Shown here: piece after piece, positions 1,635-30,102 of the stretch
Layout: every line of letters begins with the position of its first letter
How positions within the stretch are numbered: the stretch's first letter is position 1
Origin: Crocosphaera subtropica ATCC 51142
GTDB lineage: Bacteria; Cyanobacteriota; Cyanobacteriia; Cyanobacteriales; Microcystaceae
Assembly: GCF_000017845.1 (NCBI RefSeq)
Contig: NC_010547.1
Coordinates: 360,001 to 392,000 of the forward strand
Direction: 5' to 3'
Length of the DNA: 32,000 nt
Made by a program: the position numbers and the translations under genes
The notes under the pieces: model-generated
The model's input: only the letters and a program-made list of their open reading frames with translations
What the model was told of the DNA's origin: nothing
Databases searched by the model: none

Positions 1635-1648
1635 TTAAGTTATCAAAT

Positions 1649-2186: not shown

Positions 2187-2199
2187 TTGACCTAGCTTG

Positions 2200-2325: not shown

Positions 2326-2333
2326 ATGATCTA

Positions 2334-4727
2334 TTGTTAAGTCAGTCGTCAGAAAATATAACTCCATTTAATCGACTAAAAACTCTACCCAAACGACCTT
2401 CTCGTAACCATCTCAATGATTTATTAGCCCATGAACACTGGCTAGGTAATTTTGGAGAGATTAGTGATTATGTACAACATATAAACTCAGCCAAAGTTCA
2501 ACATTTTGCCAAAGAAGCTAGAGTTTTAGATGCTACCTCAGTTAAGAGAATTAAACGAAATAAACGCCTAACGCTTTTACTATGTCTTCTCTACGAATCA
2601 AGAAGGAAAAGCCAGGATAATCTCCTAGAAATGTTTTTGAAAAGAATGGCAACTATTCACAAAAAAGCCAAAGATAAACTGGAAGAAATAAGACAACAAC
2701 ACCAGCAAACAAGTGACCAACTCTTATCCACTTTTCAAGAAGTCTTGCAACTGTTGTCTGATGAAGACAAACCGGAAAAACCACAAGAGATTTTAGAAAC
2801 AATACAATCAACTTTAAGTGCTAATGGTGGATTAGACCAACTTCTCAGTCAATGTGAAGCAATAACGGCTTATAAGGGCAATAATTACTATCCGCTTCTC
2901 TGGCGATTCTATCAAAGTCATCGAGCTACGTTCTTTCGATTAATAAAGGCGGTTGAACTAGAATCAACCACTACAGATAACCGATTAATCAATGCTCTCA
3001 ACTTTTTATTAGAAAATAGCCATCGAAGAGGGGAATGGTTAATGGGAAAAGTTGATTTATCATTTACTTCCAAAGAATGGCAAAAAATCGTTATAGTCAC
3101 TCAAAATAAGACTCAAAAAATTGCTCGTCGTCCCTTTGAAGTCTGTATTTTTTCCTACTTCGCATCCGAACTAAAATCGGGAGATGTCTGCGTTAAGCAA
3201 AGTGCTTCTTTTGGGGATTGGCGTAAACAATTAATGCCCTGGGATGAATGTCAGTCAATCATAGAAGATTACTGTGGTTTATTAGATTTGCCTAACTGTG
3301 CAGATAGTTTTATTAAACATCTAAAAGATTGGTTAATAGAAACAGCTAGTCGTGTTGATGAAGGTTATCCAATCAATGAGCAAGTTATTATTAATGAGAA
3401 GGGAGAACCGACTTTAAAGAAACTATTAGCTCGTCCGATTTCAGAAAGTTTGAAAAATTTAGAAGCGATTATTGCTGAGAGAATTCCTAACCGAAACCTA
3501 ATTGATATTTTACAAAATGTAGATTATTGGACTAATTTCACCAGACATTTCGGACCATTAAGTGGTAGTGACCCCAAACTTAAAAATCCCACTGAACGTT
3601 ATTTATTGACAATTTTTACTTATGGTTGCAATTTAGGAGCGTCTCAAGCTGCTCGTCACATGAGAGGGATAGTAAATGCTAAATCTCTTTCTAATATTAA
3701 TAGTCGTCATATTAGTATTGAGCAGTTAAATCGTGGACTGACTGATATTATTAATCGCTATAATGTCCTAGATTTACCTCAATTTTGGGGTCAAGGAGAT
3801 TCGGCTGCTGCTGATGGGACTAAATATGATGTTCAAGAGCAAAACTTGTTATCTGAATACCATATTCGTTATGGTGGATATGGAGGAATTGCTTATCATC
3901 ATGTGGCGGATAAATATATTGCTTTATTCAGTCATTTTATTCCCTGTGGAACTTGGGAAGCTGTTTATATTCTTGAGGGACTTCTCCAAAATAAGTCTAC
4001 ACTTCAACCTCAAAAAATACATGGTGATACTCAAGGTCAATCTACCCCTGTCTTTGCTTTATCTTATCTTTTGGGGATTCAATTAATGCCAAGAATCAGG
4101 AACTGGCAAGACTTAATTTTTTATCGTCCTGATAAAGAGACTGTTTATAAACATATTGATTCTTTGTTTAAAGACTCTATTAATTGGGAACTTTTAAGAA
4201 CCCATTGGACAGATTTGATGCAGGTAGTTTTATCCATTTATACTGGTAAAATTTCTAGTGCTGCTATCCTCCGGAAGTTAGGCAACTATAGTCGCAAAAA
4301 CCGCTTATATAAAGCTTTTCGTGAATTAGGTCGAGTCATCCGCACGATATTTTTATTAGAATATATTTCTGATGGTAAATTGAGACGACAAATTACCGCA
4401 GCCACGAATAAAGTAGAGGCTTATCATGGTTTTTCTAAATGGTTCTTTTTTGGTGGGGATAGTATCATTAATTCTAATAATAGAGAGGAAATGGAAAAGC
4501 GCATCAAGTACAATGATTTAGTCGCTAATGCAGTTATTTTTCAGAATGTTGTTGACTTAACCGAGGTGTTCCAGCAACTTCAAACAGAAGGCTATTTCTT
4601 AGATAAAGAAGATGTTTCGGCTTTGAGTCCTTATTTAACCAGTCATATAAAACGGTTTGGCGATTATTTTCTTGATTTAACGCAAACCCCAACACAATTA
4701 GATGATTTGATGGTTTTAACCTTTTAA
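2334..4727 (+). CDS. tnpA: Tn3-family DDE transposase, N-terminally truncated (about 200 aa missing)
   Basis: 797-aa ORF opening at a TTG. Tn3-family catalytic-region motifs are present: AADGTKYD, HGDTQGQS and ATNKVEAYHGFSKWFFFGG. Its first residues align with roughly aa 210 of the ~990-aa transposase at 6384-9357, so the N-terminal DNA-binding part is absent. Confidence 0.85.
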   Translation: MLSQSSENITPFNRLKTLPKRPSRNHLNDLLAHEHWLGNFGEISDYVQHINSAKVQHFAKEARVLDATSVKRIKRNKRLTLLLCLLYESRRKSQDNLLEMFLKRMATIHKKAKDKLEEIRQQHQQTSDQLLSTFQEVLQLLSDEDKPEKPQEILETIQSTLSANGGLDQLLSQCEAITAYKGNNYYPLLWRFYQSHRATFFRLIKAVELESTTTDNRLINALNFLLENSHRRGEWLMGKVDLSFTSKEWQKIVIVTQNKTQKIARRPFEVCIFSYFASELKSGDVCVKQSASFGDWRKQLMPWDECQSIIEDYCGLLDLPNCADSFIKHLKDWLIETASRVDEGYPINEQVIINEKGEPTLKKLLARPISESLKNLEAIIAERIPNRNLIDILQNVDYWTNFTRHFGPLSGSDPKLKNPTERYLLTIFTYGCNLGASQAARHMRGIVNAKSLSNINSRHISIEQLNRGLTDIINRYNVLDLPQFWGQGDSAAADGTKYDVQEQNLLSEYHIRYGGYGGIAYHHVADKYIALFSHFIPCGTWEAVYILEGLLQNKSTLQPQKIHGDTQGQSTPVFALSYLLGIQLMPRIRNWQDLIFYRPDKETVYKHIDSLFKDSINWELLRTHWTDLMQVVLSIYTGKISSAAILRKLGNYSRKNRLYKAFRELGRVIRTIFLLEYISDGKLRRQITAATNKVEAYHGFSKWFFFGGDSIINSNNREEMEKRIKYNDLVANAVIFQNVVDLTEVFQQLQTEGYFLDKEDVSALSPYLTSHIKRFGDYFLDLTQTPTQLDDLMVLTF

Positions 4728-4939
4728 TATAAATCTTCCCCTCTGGCAAAAAGTTCAATAACTTCTGTTCTGGTAATATGATTTTTTTCGGCAATTTCTG
4801 CCAGCAATTCCCAGGCTGTATCCGTTAATCTCATGCTTCTTAATCGTTTTGTTTCTCCTGCGTAGTCAGGAGTAAACGTTCCATCTTCTGCGTGTGGTCG
4901 TCGGGGAGATTTCTTTCTGGTTCCTTCATATTGATTCAT
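4724..4939 (-). CDS. small ribbon-helix-helix (CopG/Arc-like) DNA-binding protein inside the Tn3-family remnant
   Basis: 71-aa ORF. The basic, disordered N-terminus is followed by the strand-helix-helix pattern RSMRLTDTAWELLAEIAEKNHITRTEVIELFARG. It is convergent with tnpA and overlaps its 3' end by 4 nt. It lies inside the element's right inverted repeat. Confidence 0.6.
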   Translation of the reverse strand: MNQYEGTRKKSPRRPHAEDGTFTPDYAGETKRLRSMRLTDTAWELLAEIAEKNHITRTEVIELFARGEDLY

Positions 4940-4969
4940 CGGTTGATTCTTGGACTTGCTTTCCTCCTA

Positions 4970-5003
4970 GTATATACATGGTTGAACACTGTATATACAT
5001 GGT
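4970..5003. promoter_or_regulatory. two 13-bp direct repeats (candidate RHH operator)
   Basis: GTATATACATGGT occurs at 4970-4982 and 4991-5003, a 21-bp spacing. Each copy contains the 8-bp palindrome GTATATAC. The repeats lie 31-64 bp upstream of the RHH start codon. Confidence 0.4.
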
Positions 5004-5020
5004 CTATTTACAAAACTTTA

Positions 5021-5058
5021 CATCGTGGCTGATTTTGCACGTATTCTTTCCATACCCC
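5021..5058. repeat. candidate 38-bp terminal inverted repeat (right end) of Tn3-family element 1
   Basis: Read inward from 5058 it is GGGGTATGGAAAGAATACGTGCAAAATCAGCCACGATG(TAAAG). The GGGG outer end and the internal ACG..TAAG-like end are the Tn3-family signature, and from memory it resembles the Tn4430 IR. The cadherin-like reading frame begins exactly at 5059. No matching left copy is present in the window. Confidence 0.55.
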
Positions 5059-5644
5059 AAATCAGGCCCCAGACGGCATGATTATTGACCCAGATACAGG
5101 GGTAATAAGCTGGCAACCCGACTTTACGGATATTGGGGAAAATACCATCACTGTTGAGGTATTTGATTCCCTCTTACAGTCCGCAACTCAAGAATTTACC
5201 CTCAAAGTAACCGGACAAAATACACCCCCCAATATTACCTCTAACCCCATCACTCAGATAGGCGTTACCCAAACTTATCGCTATGATGTAGAAGCACAAG
5301 ATCCCGAAAACAATCCCTTAACCTACCGTTTTGCCCAACGTCCCGACGGCATGACCATTGACCCAGAAACGGGGGTCATTACATGGCAACCGACGGAAAT
5401 CGGTAGTTATGACGTAGAAGTAACCGTTACCGATACGCAAGGGGGTCTAAGTCGTCAAATTTACACCATAGAAGTCATTACTCAACCCATTAACCAAGCC
5501 CCCGTCATTACCTCTACCCCAGGGTTACGGGCCGATGTTGAAACGCTCTACAGCTATCAAATTATTGCCAATGATCCCGATGGTGACAGCTTAACCTATC
5601 AGTTAATCGATGCCCCTGTGGGTATGACCATTAACAGTAATACC
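5059..5644 (+). pseudogene. internal fragment of a cadherin-like / putative-Ig (He_PIG-type) repeat protein gene
   Basis: About 95-aa repeats each carry PDGM(I/T)IDP(D/E)TGVI(S/T)WQP and xTYxL. The frame is open from 5059 (NQAPDGMIID...), and the homologous sequence ends at ..DAPVGMTINSNT, where the left IR of element 2 starts (5645). There is no N-terminus, signal peptide or C-terminus. Confidence 0.75.
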
Positions 5645-5683
5645 CGCCTTTGTATAGCAACGGAGAAATTTTGGTCGGTAAGG
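5645..5683. repeat. IR-L of Tn3-family element 2
   Basis: CGCCTTTGTATAGCAACGGAGAAATTTTGGTCGGTAAGG is the exact reverse complement of 9358-9396 (39/39 by my alignment). Confidence 0.9.
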
Positions 5684-5687
5684 AAAT

Positions 5688-6284
5688 TTAGTCAGACCAA
5701 AACTGGTTAAAGCAATTAGCTGAAAGCGTTGTGTAGCGTACAGTGTGTTGAATATTCTTGTGACCTAGATATTGTTGAATCATCCGTATATCATGTCCGT
5801 CATTAACTAACTTATAGCCACAAGCGTGTCGGAGCATATGAGGATGAACTGGAAAAGAGATTGAAGAACACTCAGCGACACGAGTCAACAGTTTACGAAA
5901 ACCAGCAGTGGTCATGGGACTTCCTCGTTCTGTAACAAACAGATAGGATGAAGGTGGAGATTCTCGTTTAAGTTTTCTCAATGCTCGTAGTTCTGGCCCT
6001 CTCAAAGGATGAACGCTGGGGAGGCCCTGTTTCAATCGTTGAACATGAAACAAACCCGTATCAAAATCGATCTGTTCCCATCGCAAAGCACATAATTCTG
6101 ATACTCTAAGACCATGACGATAGGTAAGTAAGATCATTGTGGCATCACGATGTCCATAGCGACCACGTTTTTTTGCCACAGCAATTAACTCTTCAACTTC
6201 ATGAGGAACTAAATATTCACGAGGTCTTTTCTCTTTGTAAGGAACAAAGGTCGGTGGAACTGTCCCACTTTTGATGTCTGGCAT
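5688..6284 (-). CDS. tyrosine site-specific recombinase (FimB/FimE/TnpI-like), probable cointegrate resolvase of element 2
   Basis: Catalytic-domain motifs are present: YRHGLRVSEL, HPHMLRHACGYKL and LGHKNIQHTVRYT (R..HxxR..Y). I prefer the ATG at 6284 (MPDIKSG), which has GAGGAG 6 nt upstream. The ORF track extends it to 6323. Confidence 0.85.
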   Translation of the reverse strand: MPDIKSGTVPPTFVPYKEKRPREYLVPHEVEELIAVAKKRGRYGHRDATMILLTYRHGLRVSELCALRWEQIDFDTGLFHVQRLKQGLPSVHPLRGPELRALRKLKRESPPSSYLFVTERGSPMTTAGFRKLLTRVAECSSISFPVHPHMLRHACGYKLVNDGHDIRMIQQYLGHKNIQHTVRYTTLSANCFNQFWSD

Positions 6285-6377
6285 TGTTTGACTCCTCAAC
6301 GCAATCAAGGGTATTCGAGCCAATTTTGGGACTCAAACTGTCCCACTTACAGTTTATAGTGAGACAGTTTAACTGTG
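6256..6377. promoter_or_regulatory. candidate recombination (IRS/res-like) site and divergent promoter region between the recombinase gene and tnpA
   Basis: The 13-bp direct repeat AACTGTCCCACTT occurs at 6258-6270 and 6336-6348. AAACTGTC (6335-6342) is inverted relative to GACAGTTT (6363-6370). Extra ACAGTTT/AACTGTG copies lie at 6349-6355 and 6371-6377, and GGGAC-N7-GTCCC lies at 6328-6344. Confidence 0.45.
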
Positions 6378-6383
6378 TAAATA

Positions 6384-9357
6384 ATGCCCGTCCAGTTTCT
6401 CTCTGAGGCAGAACATAAGTCTCTCAATCGTTTTCCAAGCGAAGTTAGTTCAGAAGATTTGAATCGCTTTTTCTTACTCTCGGATCAAGAATTATCAATT
6501 CTCAAACAACTTCGAGCCGAACATAATCGTCTGGGCTTTGCTTTACAGTTATGCTGTTTGCGGTATTTAGGGTTTTTCCCTGAAGAACTTCAGTTACCAA
6601 AGCCAGTGATTAACTATGTCGCTCAACAGTTACAGTTAATTCCAGAGTTATTAGTTTTCTATGGTCAACGCTCAAGCACCCAAAGAGAACATCAACGAAA
6701 AATACAAGCATTATTAGGATATCATCGTGCGTCTAATTCTGATTTGTTGAATTTAGAGCAATGGTTGACGGAGCGAGCATTAGAACACAATCAACCCTTA
6801 TTACTGTTCCACATGGCTTGCGAACACCTCAAACAGCAAAAAATCATTCGTATTGGCACAACGATTCTCGCGAAGATGGTTGCTACAGCTAGAACTAAAG
6901 CCAACGAACTAATCTACCAAAGCCTTCAAAATTTGTTAACCCAGGATAAGACTACTTGGCTTGATGGTTTGTTAGAAGTAGAGCCAAATGAGAAAAGAAC
7001 CCGTCTTTCCTGGCTACAGAAAACTCCAACAGGCAATAATCCCCAACAGATTTTAGAAACTCTTGATAAGATATCATTTCTACAACAACATCAGGTTGAT
7101 GCTTGGAATTTGAGTCAACTCAATCCCAACCGTATTAATTACTTAGCAAAAATTGGGGCAAGAGCCACCAATCAATACCTTCAAAGAGCTTCGGAAATTA
7201 GACGCTATCCTATCCTTATTTGCTTTCTCAAGCAGTCATTGTATAATTTCACTGATGATCTAATTGAAATGGTAGACCAACGTTTGTGGGAGTTATATAA
7301 CCAAGCAAAACGTAACTTCGATAGCGATCGCTTGATGGCTAGTAAAACCATTGACGAGAAGTTGAAGATGTTACAAAATATCGGTCAAATTCTTTTAGAT
7401 GGAGACATCGAAGATAATTCGGTTCGAGTTAAAACATTTGAATATATTACTCCTGACAATTTAAAGGCATCACTCTCTGAAACCCAACAGCTAATTCGTC
7501 CTGAAAATGATGCTTATGTTGATTACTTCGGGAAGTCCTATAATCGCGTTCGACGTTTTTCGAGTAAACTTTTGGCCACACTGAAATTTCAAGTCAAAGG
7601 TAGTGATTCGGGGTTACTAACAGCACTAAATTTAGTCCACGAAATCCACCTGGGACGAAGACGAAAATTACCTGATGAGGCTCCCACTGAGTTTGTCCCA
7701 GAGTCTTGGCGGCCTTATGTTCAGTCGGGTCAAAAACTTAATCGACGCTACTACGAACTAGCAGCCTTGTGGTTCTTACGACAACAGTTACGTTCGGGAG
7801 ATATTTATCTGGCTCAAAGTCGTCGTTTTAGCGAACTAGAAACCTATTTTATTCCACCAAAAGAATGGTCATTATGCCGAGATGAAGTAGTCAATTTAAC
7901 GGGAACGCCTATTGATGCCAGGCTTCGTCTAACCGAAAGAGAAAAGGAATTGGTTATTTTAATGGGGCAGGTCGAAGAACTGCTAAATCAACCAGATAGC
8001 GATCTCATAGAAGAACGAGGGAAGTTAGTTCTCAGTCCTTTTAAGGCAGACGAGAAAAACCTGGAGTTGAAACGTTTAGCTGAAGAAATTACTACTCGCT
8101 TGCCTAGAATTGAAATTACCGATCTTTTAGTAGAAGTAGATAGTTGGACTAATTTTAGTAACGCCTTTGAACATCTTAATCTAGCTCAAAATAAAGATTC
8201 TAATACCTTACTCAGTCTCTACAGTTGTTTATTGGCCCAAGCTTGTAATTTAGATTTCCAACAAATGGCCACCTCGACAGGGTTATTGTACAGACGTTTG
8301 TGTTGGTTCAATAATTGGTACATCCGCGATGAAACCTTGCGTTTAGCTAACAACGCATTGATTGATTATCATTATGACTTGCCTTTGAGTCATTTATGGG
8401 GTGGTGGAATGTTATCTTCCTCTGATGGTCAAAGATTTCCCGCTAAAGGTTCTTTACGCCAAGCTCGTTCCTTACCCCGTTACTTTGGTTATGGGAAAGG
8501 AGTGACTTTTTATAGTTGGACTAGCGACCAATTTTCCCAGTATGGCAGTAAACCAATTCCTGCCACAGTTAGAGATGCCACCTATGTTCTCGATGAAATT
8601 CTCAACAATGAAACCGAACTATCAATCTTAGAACATACGACCGATACAGCAGGATATACAGAAGTGATTTTTGCTCTGTTCGATTTGTTAGGAATGCGCT
8701 TTTCTCCCCGTATTCGAGATTTAGCCGACCAAAAGCTTTATCGAACCAGTAATACTGACCTCGGTCTATATCCCCTACTCAAGAAGCATATTCAGGGAAT
8801 CATAAATCAGAGATTAATTTTGGATGATTGGGATGAGATGTTGCGCTTGGTGGGTTCCTTAAAAATGGGCTGGGTTACAGCCTCATTAATCATCCAAAAA
8901 CTTCAAGCCTTTCCTCGAAAACATCCTTTAATGCGGGTTCTTCAAGAGTATGGCAGGCTCATCAAAACTATTCATATTCTTCGTTGGTATGCTGATGAAG
9001 CTAATCGACGCAGACAAAGAGCGACAATTGAATAAAGGAGAAGCTTTGCACAGTCTACGTTCTCATCTTTTTTATGCCAATCAAGGAGAAATTAAAACTC
9101 AGCAGGATGACCAGTTGCTAAATCAAGTAGGATGTCTGAATTTAGTCACTAATGCCATTATTGTCTGGAATACAGTTTATATCGATAAAGTCGTTCAGCA
9201 ACTTCAACAAGAAGGTTATGCTGTCGATGATGAAAATTTAAAGCATATTTGGCCAACTCGTCATGCACATATCAATGTTTATGGACAATATCATTTTGAT
9301 AAAAAACGATTGAGGAAAAAACATCCCTTGAGAGCCTTACGAAATCCTAATTCTTGA
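6384..9357 (+). pseudogene. tnpA: Tn3-family DDE transposase interrupted by a +1 frame change near 9015
   Basis: The 883-aa ORF (6384-9035) has a DUF4158-like N-terminus and the motifs SSDGQRF and HTTDTAGYT. The conserved C-terminal block RQLNKGEALHSLRSHLFYANQGEI continues only in the overlapping ORF 8950-9357. The two frames join within CGACGCAGACAAAGAGCGACAATTG. Confidence 0.85.
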
Positions 9358-12452: not shown

Positions 12453-12607
12453 TGAATAGTCTTGTGCTTGTTCTAAGAGATTTTCTGGATGAGGCACTAC
12501 CAAGCTAAATTACATCGAGATCCTCTATGCTACTTCTTCTATACATTATACTACATTTTTTGGGGGCTAACGCATCTCTGGAGTTTAGACTAACGTTAGC
12601 TGATAGG

Positions 12608-12628
12608 GTTTAGAGCCACATATCATAC
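12608..12628. repeat. left copy of a 21-bp perfect inverted repeat
   Basis: GTTTAGAGCCACATATCATAC is the exact reverse complement of 13546-13566. Confidence 0.85.
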
Positions 12629-13019
12629 TCAGACCAAAAAGGGCCAAATCCGACAGCTTCTTGTTGCCATCCTTGTTGAGCGTCATGATCAAGCTTGTCT
12701 GTAAAAATAGTTTTTTTAACAGGGGAAGAGGACTCAAGACAAGAGCTTTGTAGCAAAGTCGTGGGGGATTGGGATCTCGACCCCTTTCGAGACAAGGTTT
12801 CTTTTAATAGCATTAGATTAACTTGTTTTCTTTGTGTCTGCCCCTAACATCTCTTATGAGAGTTATTAGATAACTCTCGTAGCAGAAAATTTCTTTCTGT
12901 CAAGAGCAGATTAACGTCTCTTTAATTATTCCTTAAAAAACAAGGGGGTTGGGAAGATTTTTCAGCTTTCTTAATTAATCTTAATAGTCGAAACACGGCA
13001 AGACTCCCAGGTGCTTCTT

Positions 13020-13517
13020 TGAGTTAGAGGACTTTCCCTGATAACGGTGTGACCATTAATTTTGACAATGAAACTCAGAGAGAAACAACGTGAAAGTTTA
13101 CGGTATCCCCAACGGAACAGATGGCTTTATTGAAATAGCTAATGGACTGTGCCGACCAGAAGACTTAGAGATAGGGGAACACAGCTTTGATATTCCCGGA
13201 CAAAAGGGAATGAATATGGTTTTATTCTCAGTGGTAGTGTGATAGGCTGCCGTGGCAAAAAGAAAGAAAGCCCTGGAGAAAGGGAAAAGATACTTGAAGC
13301 CTATCGGTAGTTAAACTTAGATGCCTTAATTGTTGTCGGTGGAGATGGGAGCCTAGAAATTATTAATGACTTGGCTGAGCAAGGGAATTGGAAATGGATT
13401 GCCATCCCGAAGACGATTGATAACGATCTTCCTTTAACTCAGCAAGTAGTGGAATTTAATCCCGCCGTAGATATTTTAACGAAGGCCCTCTACAATCTAA
13501 CCTTCACTGCATCTTAA
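13020..13517 (+). pseudogene. pfkA: decayed 6-phosphofructokinase gene
   Basis: The best-preserved block is [66 protein letters not shown], matching the PfkA motifs GGDGS and IPKTIDND. An in-frame TAG lies at 13308-13310 just upstream (..KILEAYR*LNLDAL..). There is at least one frameshift further upstream (VKVYGIPNGTDGFIE is in another frame). The C-terminal third is missing. Confidence 0.7.
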
Positions 13518-13545
13518 GATTTATTGAGAAAACTGAGAAATCTCG

Positions 13546-13566
13546 GTATGATATGTGGCTCTAAAC
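13546..13566. repeat. right copy of a 21-bp perfect inverted repeat
   Basis: GTATGATATGTGGCTCTAAAC is the exact reverse complement of 12608-12628. Confidence 0.85.
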
Positions 13567-13885
13567 GCGATTGATCTTATAACTATGTTCCCAATCGTGA
13601 TGACATTGTATTAAGATTCGGTAAATTTTTGATTAACTCAACTTACTATTTTATTGGCTTTTTCTAAAGTATAGTAAGATGGATATATATTAATTATTTA
13701 ATAACTTTTAGTTGTATGCGACCTGAAGATATAGAAGTTTTATGGATTGCCATAGTTAGTTCTAGTTTGTCTTTTATGCTCACAGTTTTGTTGAGTTTTT
13801 AGAAGTCTTATCCATAATCTTGAATGTTGATAAATTTAAGTATTTATCCTCAACATTGAAAAACTAGCACATAATTAAAAAGAAT

Positions 13886-14071
13886 ATGTCGATAAAAAAT
13901 AATAACAATAAAGTTTGGGTGATTGTTTCTAATAATGTTCCTATAGAAGTTTATGAAGATGAGTTGACGGCTCAACAAGTTGCTTACCAATGGAACGAAC
14001 AATCTCAAGCACATATTACCTGTTATCAGGTTCCTCTGATCAGCCAATCTTCAACATCGGATAATTCATAA
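13886..14071 (+). CDS. hypothetical small protein
   Basis: 61-aa ORF with no recognisable motif. It lies in an AT-rich region between decayed genes, so coding status is uncertain. Confidence 0.25.
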   Translation: MSIKNNNNKVWVIVSNNVPIEVYEDELTAQQVAYQWNEQSQAHITCYQVPLISQSSTSDNS

Positions 14072-14100
14072 CTCATTCTCGACAAATTGATCAATCTTCC

Positions 14101-14680
14101 TCGTCCAAGATGGTTTGTAAACAATAGCAGTTACGTCCTGTAGCTTTAGCACGATAAAGTGCCATATCGACCTTCTCAAATAGAGTCTGAGTAGATAAGA
14201 AAGTTGTAGGAAAACTTACAGCTATACCTAAACTAATAGTGACATAACGACTGACGGGAGAGGGATTGTGAGCAATTTGTTCAAGTTCTATCCTTTGAAC
14301 AAGTTGTGTTGATAATAACGATTAAAATAACGACGATTAGGAATGGTGGTTAAGTCATCAAAAAAAACTAAATTTTCTTGGTTAGCTAAATATGATAATA
14401 ATCGAGCGATTATTTGAGTTGAACTATCTCCTTTCATGGAGCCAATAGGTTGTTGGTCAGCTATAATTAGATATTCTGCTGTTGAATTTATTATAAATTC
14501 TCCTAATAATAAATGTCCATTAACGTCTTCAATAGAAACTGGAGTTTCGATTAAGTGAATCAAGTCAGAGAGTAGAGATTTGATTTCAAAATCATCAATA
14601 ATTTCTTTTAACGATGTGTCATGATTCATTATTCTGAGCAACTTAATCTCATTTTTACCTAATGTTAACTTTGAGTCCAT
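14101..14680 (-). pseudogene. diguanylate cyclase (GGDEF) gene with its catalytic core deleted
   Basis: ORF 14288-14680 encodes a sensor-like N-terminus and the start of a GGDEF domain (FFDDLTTIPNRRYF), then stops. In another frame, 14101-14285 encodes the domain end (VTISLGIAVSF...FEKVDMALYRAKATGRNCY). About 90 aa, including the GG(D/E)EF motif, are absent. Confidence 0.7.
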
Positions 14681-14936: not shown

Positions 14937-15305
14937 TTAGCTTCGCAAACAACGCAGGCGATCAGAATAACTTTTCATAACCTCTAGGGCAAAGATAGGA
15001 GATTGTTGCACAGCAAAGAGAAAATGTTGATGGTCAAGGGAAACAAGCTGAGTGTCTGTCTGAGCCATAGCGGTGGAACTTCTTCGGTGATCACCATGAA
15101 CAAGGGCTCCGATGCCAAAAACATCTCCCGATTCAAGGGTCTCGACTACGGTATCATCGACTAAGATATTGACGTTTCCTGTAACAATTCCGTACATGAG
15201 TTGTGCTGGCTCTCCTTGAGAAAAAATGATTTCCCCAGACTTAAAAGCCTTAGTTTCACCATTGCTTTGTAGAATTTTGACAGTTTGAACGGGTTCTAAA
15301 ATCAT
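14937..15305 (-). CDS. stand-alone cyclic-nucleotide-binding (CNB/Crp-type effector) domain protein without an HTH
   Basis: It has a beta-roll pattern (FKSGEIIFSQGEPAQLMYGIVTGNVNI) and a phosphate-binding-cassette-like segment (GDVFGIGALVHGDHRRSSTAMA). No DNA-binding domain follows. I prefer the ATG giving MILEPVQ (15305). The ORF track extends it to 15377. Confidence 0.75.
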   Translation of the reverse strand: MILEPVQTVKILQSNGETKAFKSGEIIFSQGEPAQLMYGIVTGNVNILVDDTVVETLESGDVFGIGALVHGDHRRSSTAMAQTDTQLVSLDHQHFLFAVQQSPIFALEVMKSYSDRLRCLRS

Positions 15306-15430
15306 CGCTTTACATCTCAAAAAGTTCGTTATAACATAAGGAAGTGAAAGGAAGTGAAGCTCCCTATAGCTGTACATTCAGTCAGTTGTCTTGCTACTTA
15401 GAAAGAGAAATTTCAAGAGTATAATTCCGT

Positions 15431-22233: not shown

Positions 22234-23520
<1,287 letters not shown>

Positions 23521-23904
23521 CTAAATTTTGTCTGCTTTTGGGTCTTTATTTCTAATGTTTGTAAAACAGATAGGATTTTTGCACTATTAGAAACCATTAG
23601 TCGTTTTTTCCTTCATCTTCAAAACCTAGAACAATCCTATTCTAAGCTTTATATCCACTTTGAAAAATATCTTTCCTTGTCTTCTATTGATACATTTTTT
23701 GGTGAACATTTACTCTTAAAAAAATCTAAAAAAATTTTTTAACTTTTTAATAAACAAAAACTAATTAAACGTTAATTTTTTGATTAGTATAAAATGAGTA
23801 AATGAAAGAAAAATTCATATTTTCTATATTTTATATCATTTTTAATCTATTGCTAAGATAAACTACGTCCATCTTGAGAACAGGAGTTTTATTTATCTTC
23901 AAAA

Positions 23905-25188
23905 TCATTGATTTTCTTGTAATAAATTAGAAAGAGATTTTACAGCAGCAAAACTGGGATCAGGTAAAACAATCCAAGTTCCTTGGGGTGAATTATAACC
24001 ATAGTCTTGAGCAATTTTTTGAAACTCTGGTGATTGAATGATTCGTAATAATTGGGTTCCTTTCTCTGAAAAAGAGAAGAATTGATTACTATTAACAACC
24101 GTATGGGATAAGGCAACTAAGGTAAATTGAGAATTCGCTTCAATGATTTTTTTGCCAACAGAATAATAAGTTAATGCCCAAGGAAAACCTCCTTCTTCTA
24201 AAGCAACTTTAATCTTAGAGGACGTAGACTCTGCAAAACCAGAACGAAGTCTTAACTTTTCCATTTTTTTGGCAAGTTCTGGAGGCGTTTCTATTGGTAA
24301 TGGTTCAAATTGAGGAATGTCAGAACGATTGATTAATTGTGGTTGATTGGCTAAATTATTTAATAACATATTGTACCAAATTGTCCCGATTAAAGTTTCA
24401 GCCATTACGCCACCATTGGATTTACGAGCATCAGTAATAATAACTCCTGGAGGGGAGACGTATTGCATTAATCCCATTTGGTTCCAAGTTAAATTTCCTT
24501 CTAAAAAATCCGCAAAGGTAACGGTATCTACTTTATAATCAAAACCATACTTTTTGAGAGAATTATCAGCTTTAATTGCGGTAAAAAACTGATTTTCTGC
24601 TAAAGTTTGAGCGGCATTTTTATTAACGACTAAAACCATAGGATCACTAAATGTTGCTTCGTTGTCTAAAATTTTTATACCTTTAGCTTCTAGGATTTGT
24701 TTTCCTCCTTCAGCAATGGGTGCATCTCCTGTCCAAATAAAATCTAACTGATCTAAATCTGTTTGAGATTGAAGGGTAGATAATTGGGAAATTGAGCCTT
24801 TTTTTGTAATACTTCCTTCAGTTATTTGTAAATTTTGTTGTTCTAATAGTTCTCTTACTGTCTCATTTCTCACTAATAAGTCATATCGTTCTCCCCCAAC
24901 ATAACCATAAATTAAATTAGGAGTTTTAAATTTTTCTTGAATTTGAGGAAATCCAAAAACTGCTAACAAAAATATACTTAAACCCAGTAAAATATAAGCA
25001 ATCCAAGTAGAAAAGTTTTGAATTCTCTGACTCAAACTACTCGTTAAAATTAACACAGCTATACTGACAGTTAAACCAATGGCGATCGCATTGATCCAAT
25101 TGACTCCTAATAACTTGAGAACTAAGGTTATCAGAACAATTAGAATACTACTAATGAGTTGAGAGAGTTTTCTTTGTTGACGATTCAT
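23905..25188 (-). CDS. membrane-anchored extracytoplasmic protein with a substrate-binding-protein-like domain
   Basis: 427 aa. Three N-terminal hydrophobic helices (aa ~10-85) are followed by a ~340-aa soluble domain with an alternating beta/alpha, SBP-like character (DFIWTGDAPIAEGG, MVLVVNKNAAQ). It is the third gene of the 28737-23905 operon, 34 nt after the preceding stop. Confidence 0.6.
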   Translation of the reverse strand: MNRQQRKLSQLISSILIVLITLVLKLLGVNWINAIAIGLTVSIAVLILTSSLSQRIQNFSTWIAYILLGLSIFLLAVFGFPQIQEKFKTPNLIYGYVGGERYDLLVRNETVRELLEQQNLQITEGSITKKGSISQLSTLQSQTDLDQLDFIWTGDAPIAEGGKQILEAKGIKILDNEATFSDPMVLVVNKNAAQTLAENQFFTAIKADNSLKKYGFDYKVDTVTFADFLEGNLTWNQMGLMQYVSPPGVIITDARKSNGGVMAETLIGTIWYNMLLNNLANQPQLINRSDIPQFEPLPIETPPELAKKMEKLRLRSGFAESTSSKIKVALEEGGFPWALTYYSVGKKIIEANSQFTLVALSHTVVNSNQFFSFSEKGTQLLRIIQSPEFQKIAQDYGYNSPQGTWIVLPDPSFAAVKSLSNLLQENQ

Positions 25189-25222
25189 ACTATTTCACAT
25201 CTTTTAAACTAAAAAATACTGA

Positions 25223-26794
25223 CTAAATTTGAGCCTCCCGAAATGCTTTAAGTAATTCATCTAAAGTTTCACTAGCATTTTGTGAAATAATAGGTCTTGC
25301 ATCTAGTTTAGCGGATAATTGTTGCAGTTGTTGAGTATTAACTCCTCCTGCTCCAACAATCGTTAATTCTGGATTTTTATCTTGAATTGACTGATAAATA
25401 TTCAACAGTTCAGGGGTGACAGGATCACGAAATTGTCCATCGGTAAATAAGAAAATTTCCAGTTTATAATCAGAGGGAATTTTTTGAGCTGTTTCTAATC
25501 CCATGATTAACCCTTTATCCACAGGGGTTCCTCCCCCTGGTTTTACTTCTTTTTGCAAAGTTTCCCATAAAGTTTCTCTTGATATTTCTTCCCCTGGTTG
25601 ACTATTAAGAGGAATTTGGTAAGCATCATTTCTTTGATAAATAATTAAACTAAAACGATCATCAGGAGAGTATAAAAAATTATCTTTGGCTTTTTGGGGT
25701 TCTAATAATTCTGAAAAAGCAGCTAATAATTGTTCGTAACCTTGTCCTCTCATGGAACCAGAAGCATCAATAATGCCAATAATCCACCGTTTTTGTCGTA
25801 CTGAAGGGTGAAAGTTATCTAAAAGTTGACGATGCACTTCAGCAATGGGAGTGACTTCTTTGGTAACAGTATTAGGTAAGGGTGGATTTAATTGTTTAAT
25901 TTGCTGAAATTTACGGGGATTTTCTGCTTCTAATTGATTAAAAACTCCTTCAATTAATTGGGTTTTTAGGGTTTCATTTTCTGTTGTTACAAACCAAGTT
26001 GGGGTGACAGTAATAGCTGGTTTGACTTCGATTAAAGTAACCGGTTTTGATAAGGAAAGTGTTTCTCCATGATGATACAATGCTTTGCCATCGGGAGCGT
26101 ATAAAAATCGATAGAGAGCAACCAGTGTATTTTCTGGCCAATCTTTGGCTAATGTTTCCGCTAAATAACCGGTACTTTCACTAGATTTACCTAAATTTTG
26201 ATAAATAGGCTGTAGGGGTTTTAAAGACTCAGGGGTTATTTGTTCTGGGGTTAAGGTAGAAGCAATGGTTTCTCTGGTTAACCAAAGTAGAGTATTATAG
26301 CCACTATTACTATAGGTGGGAATGGTGGTGGCTAACTGTATTTCTCCTGATTTGAGTTTATCTAAAATTTCCTGACGAGGGACAATTTTGTTGTCCCATC
26401 CTAATGATTGTGCTGTGGTTTTTGGCAGAGCAAATTGTACTCGACTTTGATACAATGTTCCAGAGGTATTCACCCAATTGGCAGAAGGACATTTAATATC
26501 GGGCCACATTTCATCTGCAATAGCGATCGCATCGAGTTCTCCTTTACAAGCCATGTTAACTAAAGAAACTGACCCTTTTGGGATGATCGTAACCCTTTTT
26601 TTTGTTGCTTGTTCGGCTAAGGATGTTATTTCTTCTTCAAAGATTAAATTCTCTGAAGAAATGCCAATACGAATCCCATTATTATTACTAAAGCTATTAT
26701 TATTTTGATTATTTTGGCAACTGTAAATAGTCACTGTCAGGAAAAGTGTGACACAGAAACTAATCATTAACCGAATACTTTTATGATGACTCAT
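25223..26794 (-). CDS. substrate-binding and von Willebrand factor A (VWA) domain-containing lipoprotein-like protein
   Basis: The signal/lipobox-like N-terminus (LFLTVTIYSC) is followed by an Asn/Gln-rich linker and an SBP-like domain. The C-terminal VWA domain has a complete MIDAS motif (IIDASGS ... GGGTP ... FTDG). I prefer the ATG giving MSHHKS (26794). The ORF track start at 26866 would overlap the upstream gene. Confidence 0.8.
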   Translation of the reverse strand: MSHHKSIRLMISFCVTLFLTVTIYSCQNNQNNNSFSNNNGIRIGISSENLIFEEEITSLAEQATKKRVTIIPKGSVSLVNMACKGELDAIAIADEMWPDIKCPSANWVNTSGTLYQSRVQFALPKTTAQSLGWDNKIVPRQEILDKLKSGEIQLATTIPTYSNSGYNTLLWLTRETIASTLTPEQITPESLKPLQPIYQNLGKSSESTGYLAETLAKDWPENTLVALYRFLYAPDGKALYHHGETLSLSKPVTLIEVKPAITVTPTWFVTTENETLKTQLIEGVFNQLEAENPRKFQQIKQLNPPLPNTVTKEVTPIAEVHRQLLDNFHPSVRQKRWIIGIIDASGSMRGQGYEQLLAAFSELLEPQKAKDNFLYSPDDRFSLIIYQRNDAYQIPLNSQPGEEISRETLWETLQKEVKPGGGTPVDKGLIMGLETAQKIPSDYKLEIFLFTDGQFRDPVTPELLNIYQSIQDKNPELTIVGAGGVNTQQLQQLSAKLDARPIISQNASETLDELLKAFREAQI

Positions 26795-26853
26795 GAGACT
26801 GTTAAATAAGGTCTGCTGAAAAAATACTTTAATAGGAGCAAAGAAAAGGTAAG

Positions 26854-28695
26854 CTAATGTCCCCAAGTATTAATAACAATAATCGATAAAAACCCTAATA
26901 CAGTGGACATTCCTACAATAGAACCCCCTTTCGCATAAGCTTCGGGTAACATGGTTTCAGAAATGACGGTTAACATGGCACCTGCGGCCATCGCTCCCAC
27001 CAAAGAAACCCAATTTTCAGGAACATTGGCAAATAAAATAGTCCCCACCGACGCTAAAATACCCGTAATTAACATAATTGAACTCCACATAATTAAAATT
27101 TTCCTCACAGAAAACCCTTGTTCTTTCATGCCATGAGAACTAGAAAAAGCTTCTGGATAGTTAGAAATAAATAACCCTGCTAAGAGAGAGGGGCTTAGAG
27201 GTGCAGTGATAATATGCGCTCCAATGGTCAAAGCTTCTGGAATACCATCCATTAATAATCCTAACCAGATGGCCATGGGTGCATCTTTATGTTGAGCAAC
27301 GGTATTAGATAGGGTACTTGTTGAGGGAATTAAATGACCCGCATTCATACTTTGACAAGCTTTTTCGACCCATTGTCCAGCTTGAGATGAGGTAAAATTT
27401 TGTTGTTTGAGAAGATAATTCTCCATTTTGGGTTGTTCTAAAAACTTTTTGACACTGTCTTCGAGGTTTTTTGATTGTTGTAACATTTCCTCAAAATCCC
27501 GTTTTCTTAGTACCCAAACTTGTACATCGGTTAAAGCGATGGCACTAACAGTATGTTTCGCTCCAGTAACAAAAGATAATTCCCCAACAGGATCGCCTGG
27601 TTTTAAAACAAGAGGGGGTTTTTGCAAATGATGAGGATAAACAATTTCGATTTCCCCTTGATGAATAATAAAGAGACGATCTGAGTCTTCTTCTGGTTGA
27701 AAAAAGACATGACCATCTTTACGATGATGATAAGTTAAACGTTGGGCAATTTCTAGGAGTTCATGGTGGTATAAATAACGAAAAATAGGAAATCTTGTAA
27801 TCTGTCGGGCAATTTGTAAAAAGTCTGAGGTATGACGCTCAATTTCAACGGCGGGTAACATAACCCCTTCTTGGTGTAATTTTTGGATAGCTTTTTTTAA
27901 CCAATGGTTAACTTGAATTTCATCCAGCTTTTGGCGTTGTTGTAAATAGTTAGAAAGGTCTTGAGTTTTCCAAAATAATTCTATTTGTTGGCAAAGATAG
28001 GGAGAGGTGGGCAATAATTGTTCAAAGTCCGGACGGGGTAAAATATCAATTTCAGTTTCTTCTGTGGTTTGGGCAACGGTTTGATGAGGAGAAGCGGTTA
28101 AAAAGGCAAATTGTCCAAAAACATCGTTTTCTTCCAGTTTTTTAAAAGATTGAAAATCAGTTTGAGGATCTAATAATTTAACTTGTCCTTTTCTAACAAT
28201 ATAAAGACTTTCACTGGGATCTCCTTGTCGATAAATGGTTGTTTTGGGAGGATAATGAGCAGATAATAAGACTTTAGCTAATTTTTGTCTCAGAGATTGT
28301 GGGGATTTTTGAAACAAGTTAATTCGTTTAAAATTAGTCACCCGTTGTTGAAAACGACGGGATTGTTTTTGAGTTAAATGAGAAAGCGTTGTGGAGGGTT
28401 TGCGTAAAAAACCGCCAGAATTATTGACTAATTGATTAACAAAAGTAAAGAACAAACTGCCGAGAATTGAACCGATGACTAACTCTATAATATGTCCTTT
28501 TCGGGTCGCACTTCCTACTAAGTCAATGACTAAAGCTGCTAATAAAGCTCCACTACCAAAAGCCGTTAAAAAGGCTATCATACGAGAAACGGGAGTCCAT
28601 AGTAAAGCACTGATAGAACCTAAAGGCATGGAACAGGCACTAATGATTCCATAAACAAAAGCGGTTATGACAGGAGAAGTTGAAAGAAGGGTCAT
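26854..28695 (-). CDS. ZIP-family (ZupT/GufA-like) metal permease with two tandem CNB domains inserted in the central cytoplasmic loop
   Basis: There are three TM helices at the N-terminus. Two CNB-like domains follow (track aa ~140-245 and ~313-420). Next come ZIP TM4/TM5-like motifs (LMDGIPEALTIG, FISNYPEAFSS) and the C-terminal AGAMLTVISETMLPEA. I prefer the ATG at 28695 (MTLLST). The ORF track starts at a TTG at 28737. Confidence 0.8.
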   Translation of the reverse strand: MTLLSTSPVITAFVYGIISACSMPLGSISALLWTPVSRMIAFLTAFGSGALLAALVIDLVGSATRKGHIIELVIGSILGSLFFTFVNQLVNNSGGFLRKPSTTLSHLTQKQSRRFQQRVTNFKRINLFQKSPQSLRQKLAKVLLSAHYPPKTTIYRQGDPSESLYIVRKGQVKLLDPQTDFQSFKKLEENDVFGQFAFLTASPHQTVAQTTEETEIDILPRPDFEQLLPTSPYLCQQIELFWKTQDLSNYLQQRQKLDEIQVNHWLKKAIQKLHQEGVMLPAVEIERHTSDFLQIARQITRFPIFRYLYHHELLEIAQRLTYHHRKDGHVFFQPEEDSDRLFIIHQGEIEIVYPHHLQKPPLVLKPGDPVGELSFVTGAKHTVSAIALTDVQVWVLRKRDFEEMLQQSKNLEDSVKKFLEQPKMENYLLKQQNFTSSQAGQWVEKACQSMNAGHLIPSTSTLSNTVAQHKDAPMAIWLGLLMDGIPEALTIGAHIITAPLSPSLLAGLFISNYPEAFSSSHGMKEQGFSVRKILIMWSSIMLITGILASVGTILFANVPENWVSLVGAMAAGAMLTVISETMLPEAYAKGGSIVGMSTVLGFLSIIVINTWGH

Positions 28696-28875
28696 GAGTA
28701 ATAAAAAATGCCTAAAAAAATCATTTCTTTTGATCAAATAATACTCTTGAGATATATCGAGTTGAATTCTATTAACTTAAATAAAGATTAAGATTTCTTT
28801 TGTTAATTTTTATTTAATCATTTCTTAAAATAGCCTCATTATTATTCTTATGAATTTAGTGGTAGGAACTATTAA

Positions 28876-30102
28876 GTGATTAATATTCTAGTTCTCAATG
28901 CAGGTTCTAGCAGTCAAAAAAGCTGTCTGTATTGTTTAGATGAAAAAGAGTTACCTCAAGAAACCCAAAAACCCATTTGGAGTGCCAATATTGATTGGAC
29001 GGCGACTAGCAATCAAGGAGTTTTTAATGTTAAAGCGAATGGAATCAAACAACATTTAACTCTCGAATCCAATGACCATCATCAAGGGATTCGTCAAATG
29101 CTGGATACTTTAATTCAGGGAAAGACAAAAGTTATTGATAATTTTTCTGCCATTAATCTGGTTGGTCATAGAGTGGTTCACGGAGGAACGAACTACTCAG
29201 AAGCGACCTTGATTAATTCAGATGTTAAGGCAACGATTACCGAATTAATTCCTCTGGCTCCTACTCATAATCCTGCTCATCTTGAAGGAATAGAAATCAT
29301 TGAAAGTATCTTGAATAATATTCCTCAAGTTGCCGTTTTTGATACAGCTTTTCATAGTCAAATGCCTCTGGAAAATGCAGCTTATCCGATTCCTTACCAA
29401 TGGCTAGAAAAAGGAATTCGTCGCTATGGTTTTCATGGGATTAGTCATCAATATTGTGCTAATCGTGTCGCCGAATTAATGAATCAACCTTTATCTTCTC
29501 TCAAATTAATTACTTGTCATTTAGGGAATGGTTGTTCTTTAGCTGCGATTAAAAATGGTATTAGTATTGATACAACGATGGGATTTACCCCCTTAGAAGG
29601 TTTAATGATGGGAACGAGAGGTGGTTCAATTGATCCGGCAATTTTAATTTACTTAATGCGAGAACATAATTTCCAAGCAGAAGAATTAAATCATTTGTTA
29701 AATCAAGAATCGGGGTTAAAAGGGATTTCTGGAATTTCTTCTGATATGAGAGCAATTTGTCAAGGAATTAAAGAAGGAAATCAACGGGCAAAATTAGCCT
29801 TTGATATGTTCATTCATCGTCTTCATTCTTGCCTCGGTTCAATGTTGACTTCTTTAGGGGGATTAGATGCTCTTGTTTTCACCGCAGGAATTGGAGAAAA
29901 TTCGACAATTGTTCGAGAAAAAGCTTGTGAGGCTTTGAGTTTTTTAGGGTTAGAATTAGACTTGTTTAAAAATAATGATTCTCCTGTCGGTGTAGATATT
30001 TCTAGCTCTGATTCATCTATAAAAGTCTTTGTGATTCAGACTCAAGAAGATTGGGCGATCGCTCAATCTTCTTGGCAATTATATAACTCTCTCTCACATT
30101 AA
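28876..30102 (+). CDS. ackA: acetate kinase
   Basis: 408 aa with a GTG start, carrying ILVLNAGSSSQK, GHRVVHGG, VFDTAFH, RRYGFHGISH and FTAGIGENS. Confidence 0.95.
   Translation: MINILVLNAGSSSQKSCLYCLDEKELPQETQKPIWSANIDWTATSNQGVFNVKANGIKQHLTLESNDHHQGIRQMLDTLIQGKTKVIDNFSAINLVGHRVVHGGTNYSEATLINSDVKATITELIPLAPTHNPAHLEGIEIIESILNNIPQVAVFDTAFHSQMPLENAAYPIPYQWLEKGIRRYGFHGISHQYCANRVAELMNQPLSSLKLITCHLGNGCSLAAIKNGISIDTTMGFTPLEGLMMGTRGGSIDPAILIYLMREHNFQAEELNHLLNQESGLKGISGISSDMRAICQGIKEGNQRAKLAFDMFIHRLHSCLGSMLTSLGGLDALVFTAGIGENSTIVREKACEALSFLGLELDLFKNNDSPVGVDISSSDSSIKVFVIQTQEDWAIAQSSWQLYNSLSH

Follow-up and report, generated by a model that had tools for sequence, protein, structure and literature searches.

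Three co-oriented open reading frames (ORFs), here called p1, p2, and p3, lie on the minus strand of a 429.7-kb replicon of Crocosphaera subtropica ATCC 51142. The stretch of this replicon that was analyzed, referred to as the window, is 32,000 nucleotides long (contig NC_010547.1, positions 360,001 to 392,000), and the positions of all features are given in Table 1. p1 encodes a ZIP-type membrane protein that carries two cyclic nucleotide-binding (CNB) domains. p2 encodes a predicted lipoprotein in which a domain resembling a substrate-binding protein (SBP) is fused to a VWA domain, and p3 encodes a membrane-anchored protein with a probable SBP-like fold. The best overall explanation of the region, to which we assign a probability of about 0.6, is that p1 on the one side and p2-p3 on the other are two independent units that are adjacent in one Crocosphaera lineage. 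p1 is a widespread and apparently unstudied variant of the ZIP family, and p2-p3 is a second, unrelated, and uncharacterized module.

With the start codons preferred from homologue alignments, the gap between p1 and p2 is 59 nt and that between p2 and p3 is 34 nt. Use of the alternative TTG start of p2 turns the first gap into a 13-nt overlap with p1. The p1 product is 100% identical to a C. subtropica ATCC 51142 protein annotated only as "unknown", and the p3 product likewise matches a protein of this strain at 100% identity. A preliminary description of this DNA, made from its letters alone, had reported three same-strand genes with these two gaps, placed between a glycolytic operon and ackA/xfp and near ppk1 and a CHAD gene; the ORFs with their homologue-aligned starts and the annotation of the window agree with it on each of these points.

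Whether the three genes belong together was assessed from their relatives. These were sought in one genome per GTDB species, and the neighborhood analyses used the best 80 of 474 p1 loci, with up to 10 kb on each side; many of the contigs (denoted by L numbers) are shorter. In tblastn searches of the 80 loci, p2 and p3 are present in two, L003 and L005, both from Crocosphaera metagenome-assembled genomes (MAGs) whose p1 is 79% identical to that of the window. The other 78 are without them, including the close relatives L006 (p1 79% identity) and L007 (76%), which have 10-kb flanks, and L002 (82%), which has no p2-p3 in its 2.9 kb of downstream sequence. Conversely, the p2-p3 pair is found without p1 on 12 other contigs (L081-L085, L087-L092, and L094), in at least seven contexts. 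One of these is another Crocosphaera MAG (L087), where p2 is 86% identical, the pair follows a hybrid histidine kinase gene, and no p1 lies within 10 kb. Well outside the cyanobacteria, too, the pair is conserved, with no ZIP gene beside it, and p2-p3 is therefore old and self-contained. p1 and p2-p3 are thus independent of each other.

The preliminary description had instead joined the three genes into one system, in which ligand capture or sensing by the SBP/VWA proteins supplies or controls a CNB-gated ZIP. The genes are co-oriented and closely spaced, the order p1-p2-p3 is kept in L003 and L005, and no intrinsic terminator was detected between the three genes on the coding strand (in promoter and terminator scans the counts were at the level expected from shuffled sequence and are uninformative). 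In L003 and L005, however, the p1-p2 gap is 171-282 nt, as opposed to 59 nt in the window. Gene order also varies within Crocosphaera: eno precedes p1-p2-p3 in these two MAGs, 86 nt ahead of p1, and comes after p3 in strain 51142. Co-occurrence of the trio across genomes had been named beforehand as the test of this system, and it fails in 78 of the 80 p1 loci. As a conserved system this reading is already refuted, and we consider it very doubtful overall. Tight gene spacing in one genome was no evidence of a system here.

The AlphaFold2 (AF2) model of p1 has a mean predicted local distance difference test score (pLDDT) of 83.8 and was built from a 57-sequence alignment. From the N-terminus it consists of three transmembrane (TM) helices and a long linker helix, followed by two beta-roll CNB domains and a further five TM helices. 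The helices span residues 22-46, 51-80, and 83-106 and, after the CNB domains, residues 486-511, 516-539, 544-569, 574-604, and 607-626. In this model p1 has the 3 + 5 topology of ZIP transporters, and the TM3-TM4 loop is the place at which both CNB domains have been inserted. The TM1-TM3 region aligns with the N-terminal part of Escherichia coli ZupT and of a stand-alone ZIP from Deinococcus, and the TM4-TM8 region is 40.6% identical (E 2e-22) to a ZIP transporter annotated by PGAP.

The Deinococcus protein was found by a tblastn search of plasmids. It is a stand-alone protein of 241 aa from Deinococcus sp. QL22 (WP_249395302.1), named "ZIP family zinc transporter" by PGAP. After excision of the CNB domains, residues 6-251 of p1 align with its residues 1-240, that is, end to end, at 34% identity (E 3e-45), and the splice point falls at its short TM3-TM4 loop. 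A profile of 77 p1-family membrane domains is collinear with ZupT over positions 9-219 of 244 (19.8 bits, E 2.6e-8, a value that holds for one pre-chosen target). Moreover, the Pfam Zip model matched the CNB-excised membrane domains of 14 of 15 family members, with a best E-value of 1.8e-9, and many p1 homologues carry precomputed PF02535 matches. On this model the Deinococcus protein scores 34.2 bits, ZupT 133, and p1 16.5 (cut-off 35.1), and the difference between the Deinococcus protein and ZupT shows that the subfamily to which p1 belongs has diverged to the limit of what the Pfam model covers. Judged by these alignments, p1 is a member of a divergent eight-TM ZIP subfamily whose stand-alone members are about 240 aa long. 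One JGI record is automatically named "CRP-like cAMP-binding protein/zinc transporter ZupT", so annotation pipelines detect both halves of p1; NCBI gives only "cyclic nucleotide-binding domain-containing protein". The stand-alone gene itself (L095, plasmid NZ_CP097151.1, 271140-271865) is surrounded by fragments of transposases and integrases, and a gene annotated as "cyclic-di-AMP receptor" is about 1 kb away.

The p1 family departs from the canonical ZIP motifs, which are H-N-x-P-E-G in TM4 and H/Q-N/D-x-P-E-G in TM5. The motifs of p1 are D497-G-I-P-E501-A in TM4 and S525-N526-Y-P-E529-A in TM5, to which HNFPEG and HNIPEG correspond in ZupT, together with E594 and E599 in ETMLPEAY. In the family the Pro-Glu pair is invariant in both motifs, and the TM4 His is replaced by Asp, the TM4 Asn by Gly, and the TM5 His by Ser or Ala. 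A census of 77 sequences gave Asp in 74/74 and Glu in 74/74 for TM4; for TM5 it gave Ser (61) or Ala (14) at the former His position, Asn in 75, and Glu in 74. E599 of TM7 and D72 of TM2 are near-invariant in the same 77 family members. Since both motif His residues are replaced, every candidate metal ligand of p1 is an oxygen, and from such an all-oxygen site we infer a preference for a hard divalent cation (Mn2+, Mg2+, or Ca2+) over Zn2+. We hold this substrate assignment less firmly than the overall picture of the region. The loss of both His residues suggests a substrate beyond the usual Zn/Fe range.

The CNB domains of p1 are well supported. Pfam cNMP_binding (PF00027) matches in two stretches (E 4.8e-35, 119.8 bits, cut-off 27.5), both beta-rolls are modeled at a pLDDT of about 90, and the best sequence and Foldseek matches of the pair are the tandem CNB domains of PKA and PKG. 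His218 of CNB-A and His395 of CNB-B align with the Arg that binds the cyclic phosphate in the PKA/PKG cassettes, including that of the yeast PKA regulatory subunit Bcy1 (HMMER). Across the 77 sequences this position holds His in 59, Tyr in 5, and Arg in 3 for CNB-A, and His in 67, Tyr in 6, and Arg in 1 for CNB-B. At the position of the cassette Glu, which contacts the ribose 2'-OH, CNB-A has Arg, Gln, Trp, Lys, or His and in no case Glu. In CNB-B this position holds Glu in 30 of the 77, among them the window protein, whereas 28 have Gly or Ala. CNB folds that lack the canonical cassette residues usually bind other ligands or none.

These residues bear on the most familiar way to read such a protein, namely as a conventional zinc or iron ZIP importer gated by cAMP or cGMP, which would put trace-metal uptake under second-messenger control. 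Two Pfam-significant CNB domains with PKA/PKG tandems as their nearest matches speak for it. In cyanobacteria, cAMP responds to light-dark and oxic-anoxic transitions, and this would be in keeping with a neighborhood of fermentation genes. Against it, both domains have His in place of the cassette Arg, CNB-A lacks the Glu, and CNB-B has it in only some sequences, which makes cAMP/cGMP gating doubtful, and the His residues of the ZupT TM4 and TM5 motifs are replaced by Asp and by Ser or Ala. In addition, no cyclase gene recurs near p1 among the 80 loci, and Rfam returned no match, hence no upstream metal riboswitch, in positions 23300-29000 of the window or in six p1 loci. We regard this reading as quite unlikely; cyclic-nucleotide gating of p1 is possible and is not the default reading of its sequence.

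The p1 family occurs in at least 474 species-level genomes from several phyla, with matches near the full length of p1. Its members are found in cyanobacteria, gamma- and alphaproteobacteria, Scalindua-type anammox bacteria, and others. In the window, p1-p2-p3 are followed on the same strand by eno, pgi, pyk, and a phosphoglycerate-mutase-type gene of the His_Phos_1 family (gpm). ackA and xfp lie upstream of p1 and are divergent from it, and ppk1, a CHAD gene, and a gene for a small stand-alone CNB protein are 9-15 kb away. Homologues of these window genes recur near p1 elsewhere: tblastn of the 80 loci found eno in 6, pyk in 5, xfp in 5, ppk1 in 4-5, ackA in 4, and pgi in 3. Clusters of neighboring ORFs gave PGM in 7, glycogen phosphorylase in 5, lactate permease in 5, and a His_Phos_1 mutase in 4. 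About 24 of the 80 loci have at least one of these metabolic genes, and in at least 11 it is within about 750 nt of p1. Such loci (for example, L006, L002, L023, L046, and L064) include those of gammaproteobacteria and Scalindua. xfp is found at +208 of the p1 homologue in a gammaproteobacterium (L050). ppk1 is located at +170 in L070, from a Pseudomonadota MAG, and at -26 in L053, from Dactylococcopsis. Crocosphaera sp. XPORK-15E has lactate permease, PGM, eno, pgi, and pyk behind p1, the first two of these being in the place that p2-p3 occupy in the window. Because glycolytic and phosphoketolase neighbors recur, the position of the window p1 between the glycolytic genes and ackA/xfp reflects an association of p1 itself. 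The recurrent neighbors tie p1 to fermentative carbon catabolism and polyphosphate metabolism, and this is the strongest functional clue for p1. Full-text searches found no literature on CNB-containing ZIPs or on these genes.

The same neighborhood bears on whether p1 is an anti-phage effector of the Pycsar type, in which a CNB sensor activated by a cyclic pyrimidine is joined to a membrane-disrupting domain. The CNB region of p1 does give weak PADLOC matches to PycTIR and other effector models (E 1e-8 to 3e-6). These matches cover the CNB domain only, and no cyclase gene is adjacent to p1 in the window or recurrent in the 80 loci. The membrane part of p1 has eight helices, is homologous to ZIPs, and contains a metal site that is conserved, and p1 sits among core carbon-metabolism genes in several phyla. 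This explanation has next to no probability.

p2 is an extracytoplasmic protein with two recognizable parts. Its VWA domain is significant in Pfam (E 1.5e-10, 42 bits, cut-off 23.8) and contains a complete metal ion-dependent adhesion site (MIDAS). The MIDAS residues D343/S345/S347, T423, and D452, as well as the lipobox Cys26, are invariant in 21 homologues. The N-terminal domain matches SBP_bac_11 just below the cut-off (E 7.4e-5, 23.1 bits, cut-off 25), and several p2 homologues carry precomputed PF13531 matches.

p3 is modeled with three N-terminal helices followed by an alpha/beta domain. The 50 top Foldseek matches are mainly ABC-type SBPs for ferric iron, molybdate/tungstate, metal-citrate, and phosphate. 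The best E-value is 4e-5, and the target-normalized TM-scores are mostly 0.4-0.5, with a maximum of 0.52, for a model of pLDDT 63.6. Among 1.84 billion representative proteins, only 27 relatives of p3 were recovered by a profile search. No significant Pfam or NCBIfam match was obtained for p3, its 26 homologues, or 10 remote relatives, and no p3 homologue was matched on plasmids. The N-terminal domain of p2 and the ectodomain of p3 are not detectably homologous by BLASTP or hhalign. A resemblance between p2 and p3 in short motifs (KGSxS, SNxG, and ESTS) was considered and rejected as being without statistical support.

The p2 and p3 homologues adjoin each other, and in most pairs their stop and start codons overlap. 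The genes around them vary. In L081-L083, contigs of Pleurocapsales type (846-7565 in L081), it directly follows a PBP2 gene of the mrdA type, and three TerD genes come next. In L084, L088, and L089 it directly follows rodZ, and in L085 it lies in a mobile-element region. Two different cell-elongation genes, PBP2 and rodZ, are thus found upstream of p2-p3, which may hint at a role in the cell wall or be a coincidence. Among the remote p3 relatives, four of the five contigs looked up have a VWA protein ahead of the p3-like gene, and the fifth (L093) is too short to tell. In L090 and L091 this VWA protein is a full-length p2 homologue by the p2 profile. L091 (5612-10364) and L092 (3808-8198), both metagenomic and of unassigned taxonomy, have the order SBP-VWA, small membrane protein, p3-like protein, TelA, and the small membrane protein in L092 is XpaC-like (PF10112). 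The p2-p3 module may be an unrecognized companion of the XpaC-TelA pair. In the window itself, TelA, XpaC, and TerD genes were not found near p2-p3. If p2-p3 is linked to anything, it is to TelA/XpaC, TerD, and cell-envelope genes, and the TelA/XpaC, TerD, RodZ, and PBP2 neighbors suggest that the pair senses envelope or ion stress and does not serve a ZIP.

A further reading takes p2 and p3 as orphan SBPs that deliver a metal or an oxyanion to an ABC transporter encoded elsewhere. The SBP_bac_11-type domain of p2 and the predominance of ABC-type SBPs among the Foldseek matches of p3 are in keeping with it, and in L090, a single remote locus, an SBP_bac_3 gene and two ABC permease genes stand immediately ahead of the pair. 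An ABC permease or ATPase gene is, however, absent beside the pair in the window and in nine other contexts seen. The fusion to a MIDAS-containing VWA domain and the three-helix anchor of p3 are atypical of delivery SBPs, and the p3 family has no Pfam SBP match, even among its remote relatives. Delivery to an ABC transporter is therefore, in our judgment, a decidedly doubtful role for the pair.

Several observations weigh against parts of the picture given here. The Pfam Zip match of the window p1 is weak (E 0.005, 16.5-17.1 bits, below the cut-off of 35.1). By hhalign, the membrane-domain profile is collinear with ZupT at a low probability of 7-13%; because of this low value, the ZIP homology rests on the HMMER alignment with ZupT and the BLASTP alignment with the Deinococcus ZIP. 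Searched against PDB sequences, the same profile found no ZIP structure and had no match even at E 10, and in a Foldseek search of the PDB with the full p1 model all 50 matches listed are CNB proteins. In CNB-B, 26 of the 77 sequences have an Arg one position before the His, and a His at the Arg position could itself still contact a cyclic phosphate. The enrichment of metabolic neighbors comes from related genomes without correction for phylogeny, and the chance expectation of about 0.5 adjacent genes per 80 loci is rough. The SBP-like fold of p3 is probable and comes from a low-confidence model. Lastly, the tight spacing and the p1-p2-p3 order kept in two related MAGs make co-transcription and a lineage-specific functional link of the three genes possible.

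Much of what the preliminary description said of the single proteins stands. It had called p1 a ZIP-type permease with two CNB modules, which the end-to-end ZIP alignments, the AF2 topology, and Pfam cNMP_binding bear out. Its account of p2 as an SBP-VWA extracytoplasmic protein with all MIDAS residues holds as well: the Pfam VWA match and the invariance of those residues confirm the VWA part, and the SBP-like part has its near-threshold SBP_bac_11 match. For p3 it had given a three-TM anchor with an SBP-like ectodomain, with which AF2 and Foldseek agree, the fold of the ectodomain being probable. In the HMMER searches it had proposed, cNMP_binding and VWA exceeded their cut-offs and Zip did not for the window p1. 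Its remark on ppk1 gains weight from the four or five other genomes in which p1 homologues adjoin this gene. Of the cyclic-nucleotide gating that it had suggested, the two CNB modules are present and the gating is doubtful.

How p1 might work can be outlined from the position of its CNB domains. In structural work on BbZIP, the TM3-TM4 loop is the connection between one helix of the scaffold and one of the transport domain, the part that moves. In p1, two CNB-fold domains take the place of this short cytoplasmic loop. A CNB tandem in the loop between scaffold and transport domain suggests that transport by p1 is gated by a ligand: on binding a cytoplasmic ligand, the tandem would lock or release transport. 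The ligand is probably not bound in the canonical cAMP/cGMP manner. p1 would then carry hard divalent cations under the control of a ligand, in the service of fermentative carbon catabolism and of polyphosphate metabolism, and its sequence and neighbors make it probable that it is a transporter of this kind, tied to these pathways. ZIPs are regulated through a disordered, His-rich TM3-TM4 loop, and no ZIP is known to be controlled by a folded ligand-binding domain. A bolder proposal is that the p1 family represents the first ligand-gated ZIP. Its CNB sensor, which no longer has the canonical cNMP contacts, might respond to a metabolite or an unusual nucleotide. In cyanobacteria, gammaproteobacteria, and anammox bacteria alike, it would switch Mn2+, Mg2+, or Ca2+ flux to keep pace with glycogen fermentation, polyphosphate turnover, and the phosphoketolase/acetate kinase route. 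We offer this as a tentative possibility, with the odds somewhat against it.

For p2-p3, domain content and context lead us to propose a complex outside the cytoplasm. A cation bound at the MIDAS of p2 would mediate docking of this site to p3 or to a different component of the envelope, and the SBP-like cleft of one or both proteins may bind a small anion or a metal chelate.

Table 1. Features of the p1-p2-p3 region and of other parts of the window, by position in the window
Feature	Position	Strand	Remarks
p1, longest ORF	28737..26854	-	TTG start at 28737; 627 aa
p1, preferred form	26854..28695	-	ATG start at 28695; 613 aa; start from homologue alignment
p1 TM1-TM3	28420..28674	-	Residues 22-106 (627-aa numbering), AF2 helices; then invariant GGFLRK motif
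p1 CNB-A	27970..28299	-	Residues ~147-256; cassette FGQFAFLTASPHQTVA; His218 for canonical Arg; without Glu
p1 CNB-B	27406..27831	-	Residues ~303-444; cassette GELSFVTGAKHTVSA; His395 for canonical Arg
p1 TM4-TM8	26860..27282	-	Residues 486-626; Pfam Zip match at residues 477-604
p2, longest ORF	26866..25223	-	TTG start
p2, preferred form	25223..26794	-	ATG start at 26794; 523 aa; predicted lipoprotein; start from homologue alignment
p2 SBP-like domain	25847..26689	-	After lipobox Cys; conserved Cys pair; TYSNSGYNT motif
p2 VWA domain	25253..25774	-	Complete MIDAS: DASGS, T of GGTPV, D of FTDG
p3	25188..23905	-	ORF, 427 aa
p3 TM helices	24931-25182	-	Three, N-terminal (AF2)
p3 C-terminal domain	23908-24921	-	~340 aa; probable SBP-like fold
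Stand-alone CNB protein	14937-15377	-	146 aa; cassette FGIGALVHGDHRRSSTAMA
130-aa ORF	14288-14680	-	C-terminal end ...DDLTTIPNRRYFNRYY
6-phosphofructokinase remnant	13308-13517	+	Inside ORF-poor stretch 12504-14287
Mobile-element patch	432-9035		
Tn3-family transposase genes	2334-4727; 6384-9035		Latter with DUF4158
Tyrosine recombinase	5688-6323	-	
Truncated ParA-like gene	1649-2038		
AAA_22 gene	432-1367		

Other features of the window lie farther from the three genes. The glycolytic cluster includes a decayed 6-phosphofructokinase gene, of which 68 residues (ending in IPKTIDNDL) remain open between stops on both sides and match solved phosphofructokinase structures (E 6e-8). This remnant is an additional glycolytic gene of the cluster that is now a pseudogene. 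The stand-alone CNB protein (Pfam cNMP_binding, E 2.7e-18) is encoded just upstream of ppk1 and divergent from it, and is the second CNB protein in the same metabolic cluster. The 130-aa ORF has no Pfam match at E 1e-5. Its C-terminal end resembles the start of a GGDEF domain, and it may be a remnant of a truncated diguanylate cyclase. Near the start of the window is a patch of mobile elements, which suggests that this segment of the replicon is plastic and fits with p2-p3 having moved.

The p1 family matters for several reasons. It comprises hundreds of species with two CNB domains at the TM3-TM4 loop and therefore offers a natural system for studying how the conformation of this loop controls a ZIP carrier. 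The placement of p1 beside genes for glycogen fermentation, phosphoketolase, and ppk1 suggests an unrecognized ion-homeostasis component of dark or anoxic energy metabolism. One case of this link comes from a model diazotrophic cyanobacterium, in the fermentation gene cluster of its 429.7-kb replicon. p2-p3 is a small conserved pair whose p3 belongs to no described family, and its link to TelA, XpaC, and TerD provides a handle on stress genes that are poorly understood.

Compared with known systems, p2 resembles TerY, BatA/BatB, and the magnesium chelatase D subunit in having a VWA domain with a complete DxSxS...T...D MIDAS. It differs from them in being without a partner AAA+ (MoxR-type) ATPase, PP2C phosphatase, or kinase, and in having an SBP-like N-terminal fusion on a lipoprotein that is always paired with p3. 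Among SBPs, FbpA/FutA, ModA/TupA, and PstS are the likenesses of p2-p3, through the near-threshold SBP_bac_11 match of p2 and the Foldseek matches of p3. Unlike SBPs of ABC transporters, p2-p3 have no linked ABC permease or ATPase, p3 is anchored by three TM helices, and p3 has no detectable sequence similarity to any Pfam SBP family. The relatives of p2-p3 share the neighborhoods of TelA/XpaC and TerD, with TelA in two contigs (L091 and L092) and three TerD genes in L081-L083. The window pair differs in having none of these genes nearby, and the association is seen in few contigs only.

p1 shares with ZupT and BbZIP (GufA-type, PF02535) the eight TM helices in a 3 + 5 arrangement, a cytoplasmic TM3-TM4 loop, x-x-x-P-E-x motifs (one each in TM4 and TM5), and an acidic TM7 residue; with ZupT it is collinear over the full length. 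It differs from them in the loss of both motif His residues, the motifs being DGIPE(A/S) and (S/A)NxPEA, in the approximately 370 residues with two CNB domains in the TM3-TM4 loop, and in its sub-cut-off Pfam score. Closer to p1 is the stand-alone Deinococcus ZIP of the DGIPE type, which has the motifs DGIPES, SNIPES, and TMLPEAY and a GG-basic motif after TM3. This protein, itself uncharacterized, differs in its length of 241 aa, its TM3-TM4 loop of about 20 residues, and its lack of CNB domains. With the regulatory subunits of PKA and PKG, p1 has in common two consecutive CNB beta-rolls, whereas its cassette Arg is His and its cassette Glu is not conserved. In this respect p1 resembles trypanosome PKA-R and the KCNH channels, whose CNB domains bind other ligands or none. 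The idea that a cytoplasmic CNB domain controls a membrane transport protein is familiar from the channels MloK1 and SthK (MloK1-type); unlike theirs, the CNB pair of p1 lies inside a loop of a carrier-type protein and not at the C-terminus of a tetrameric channel.

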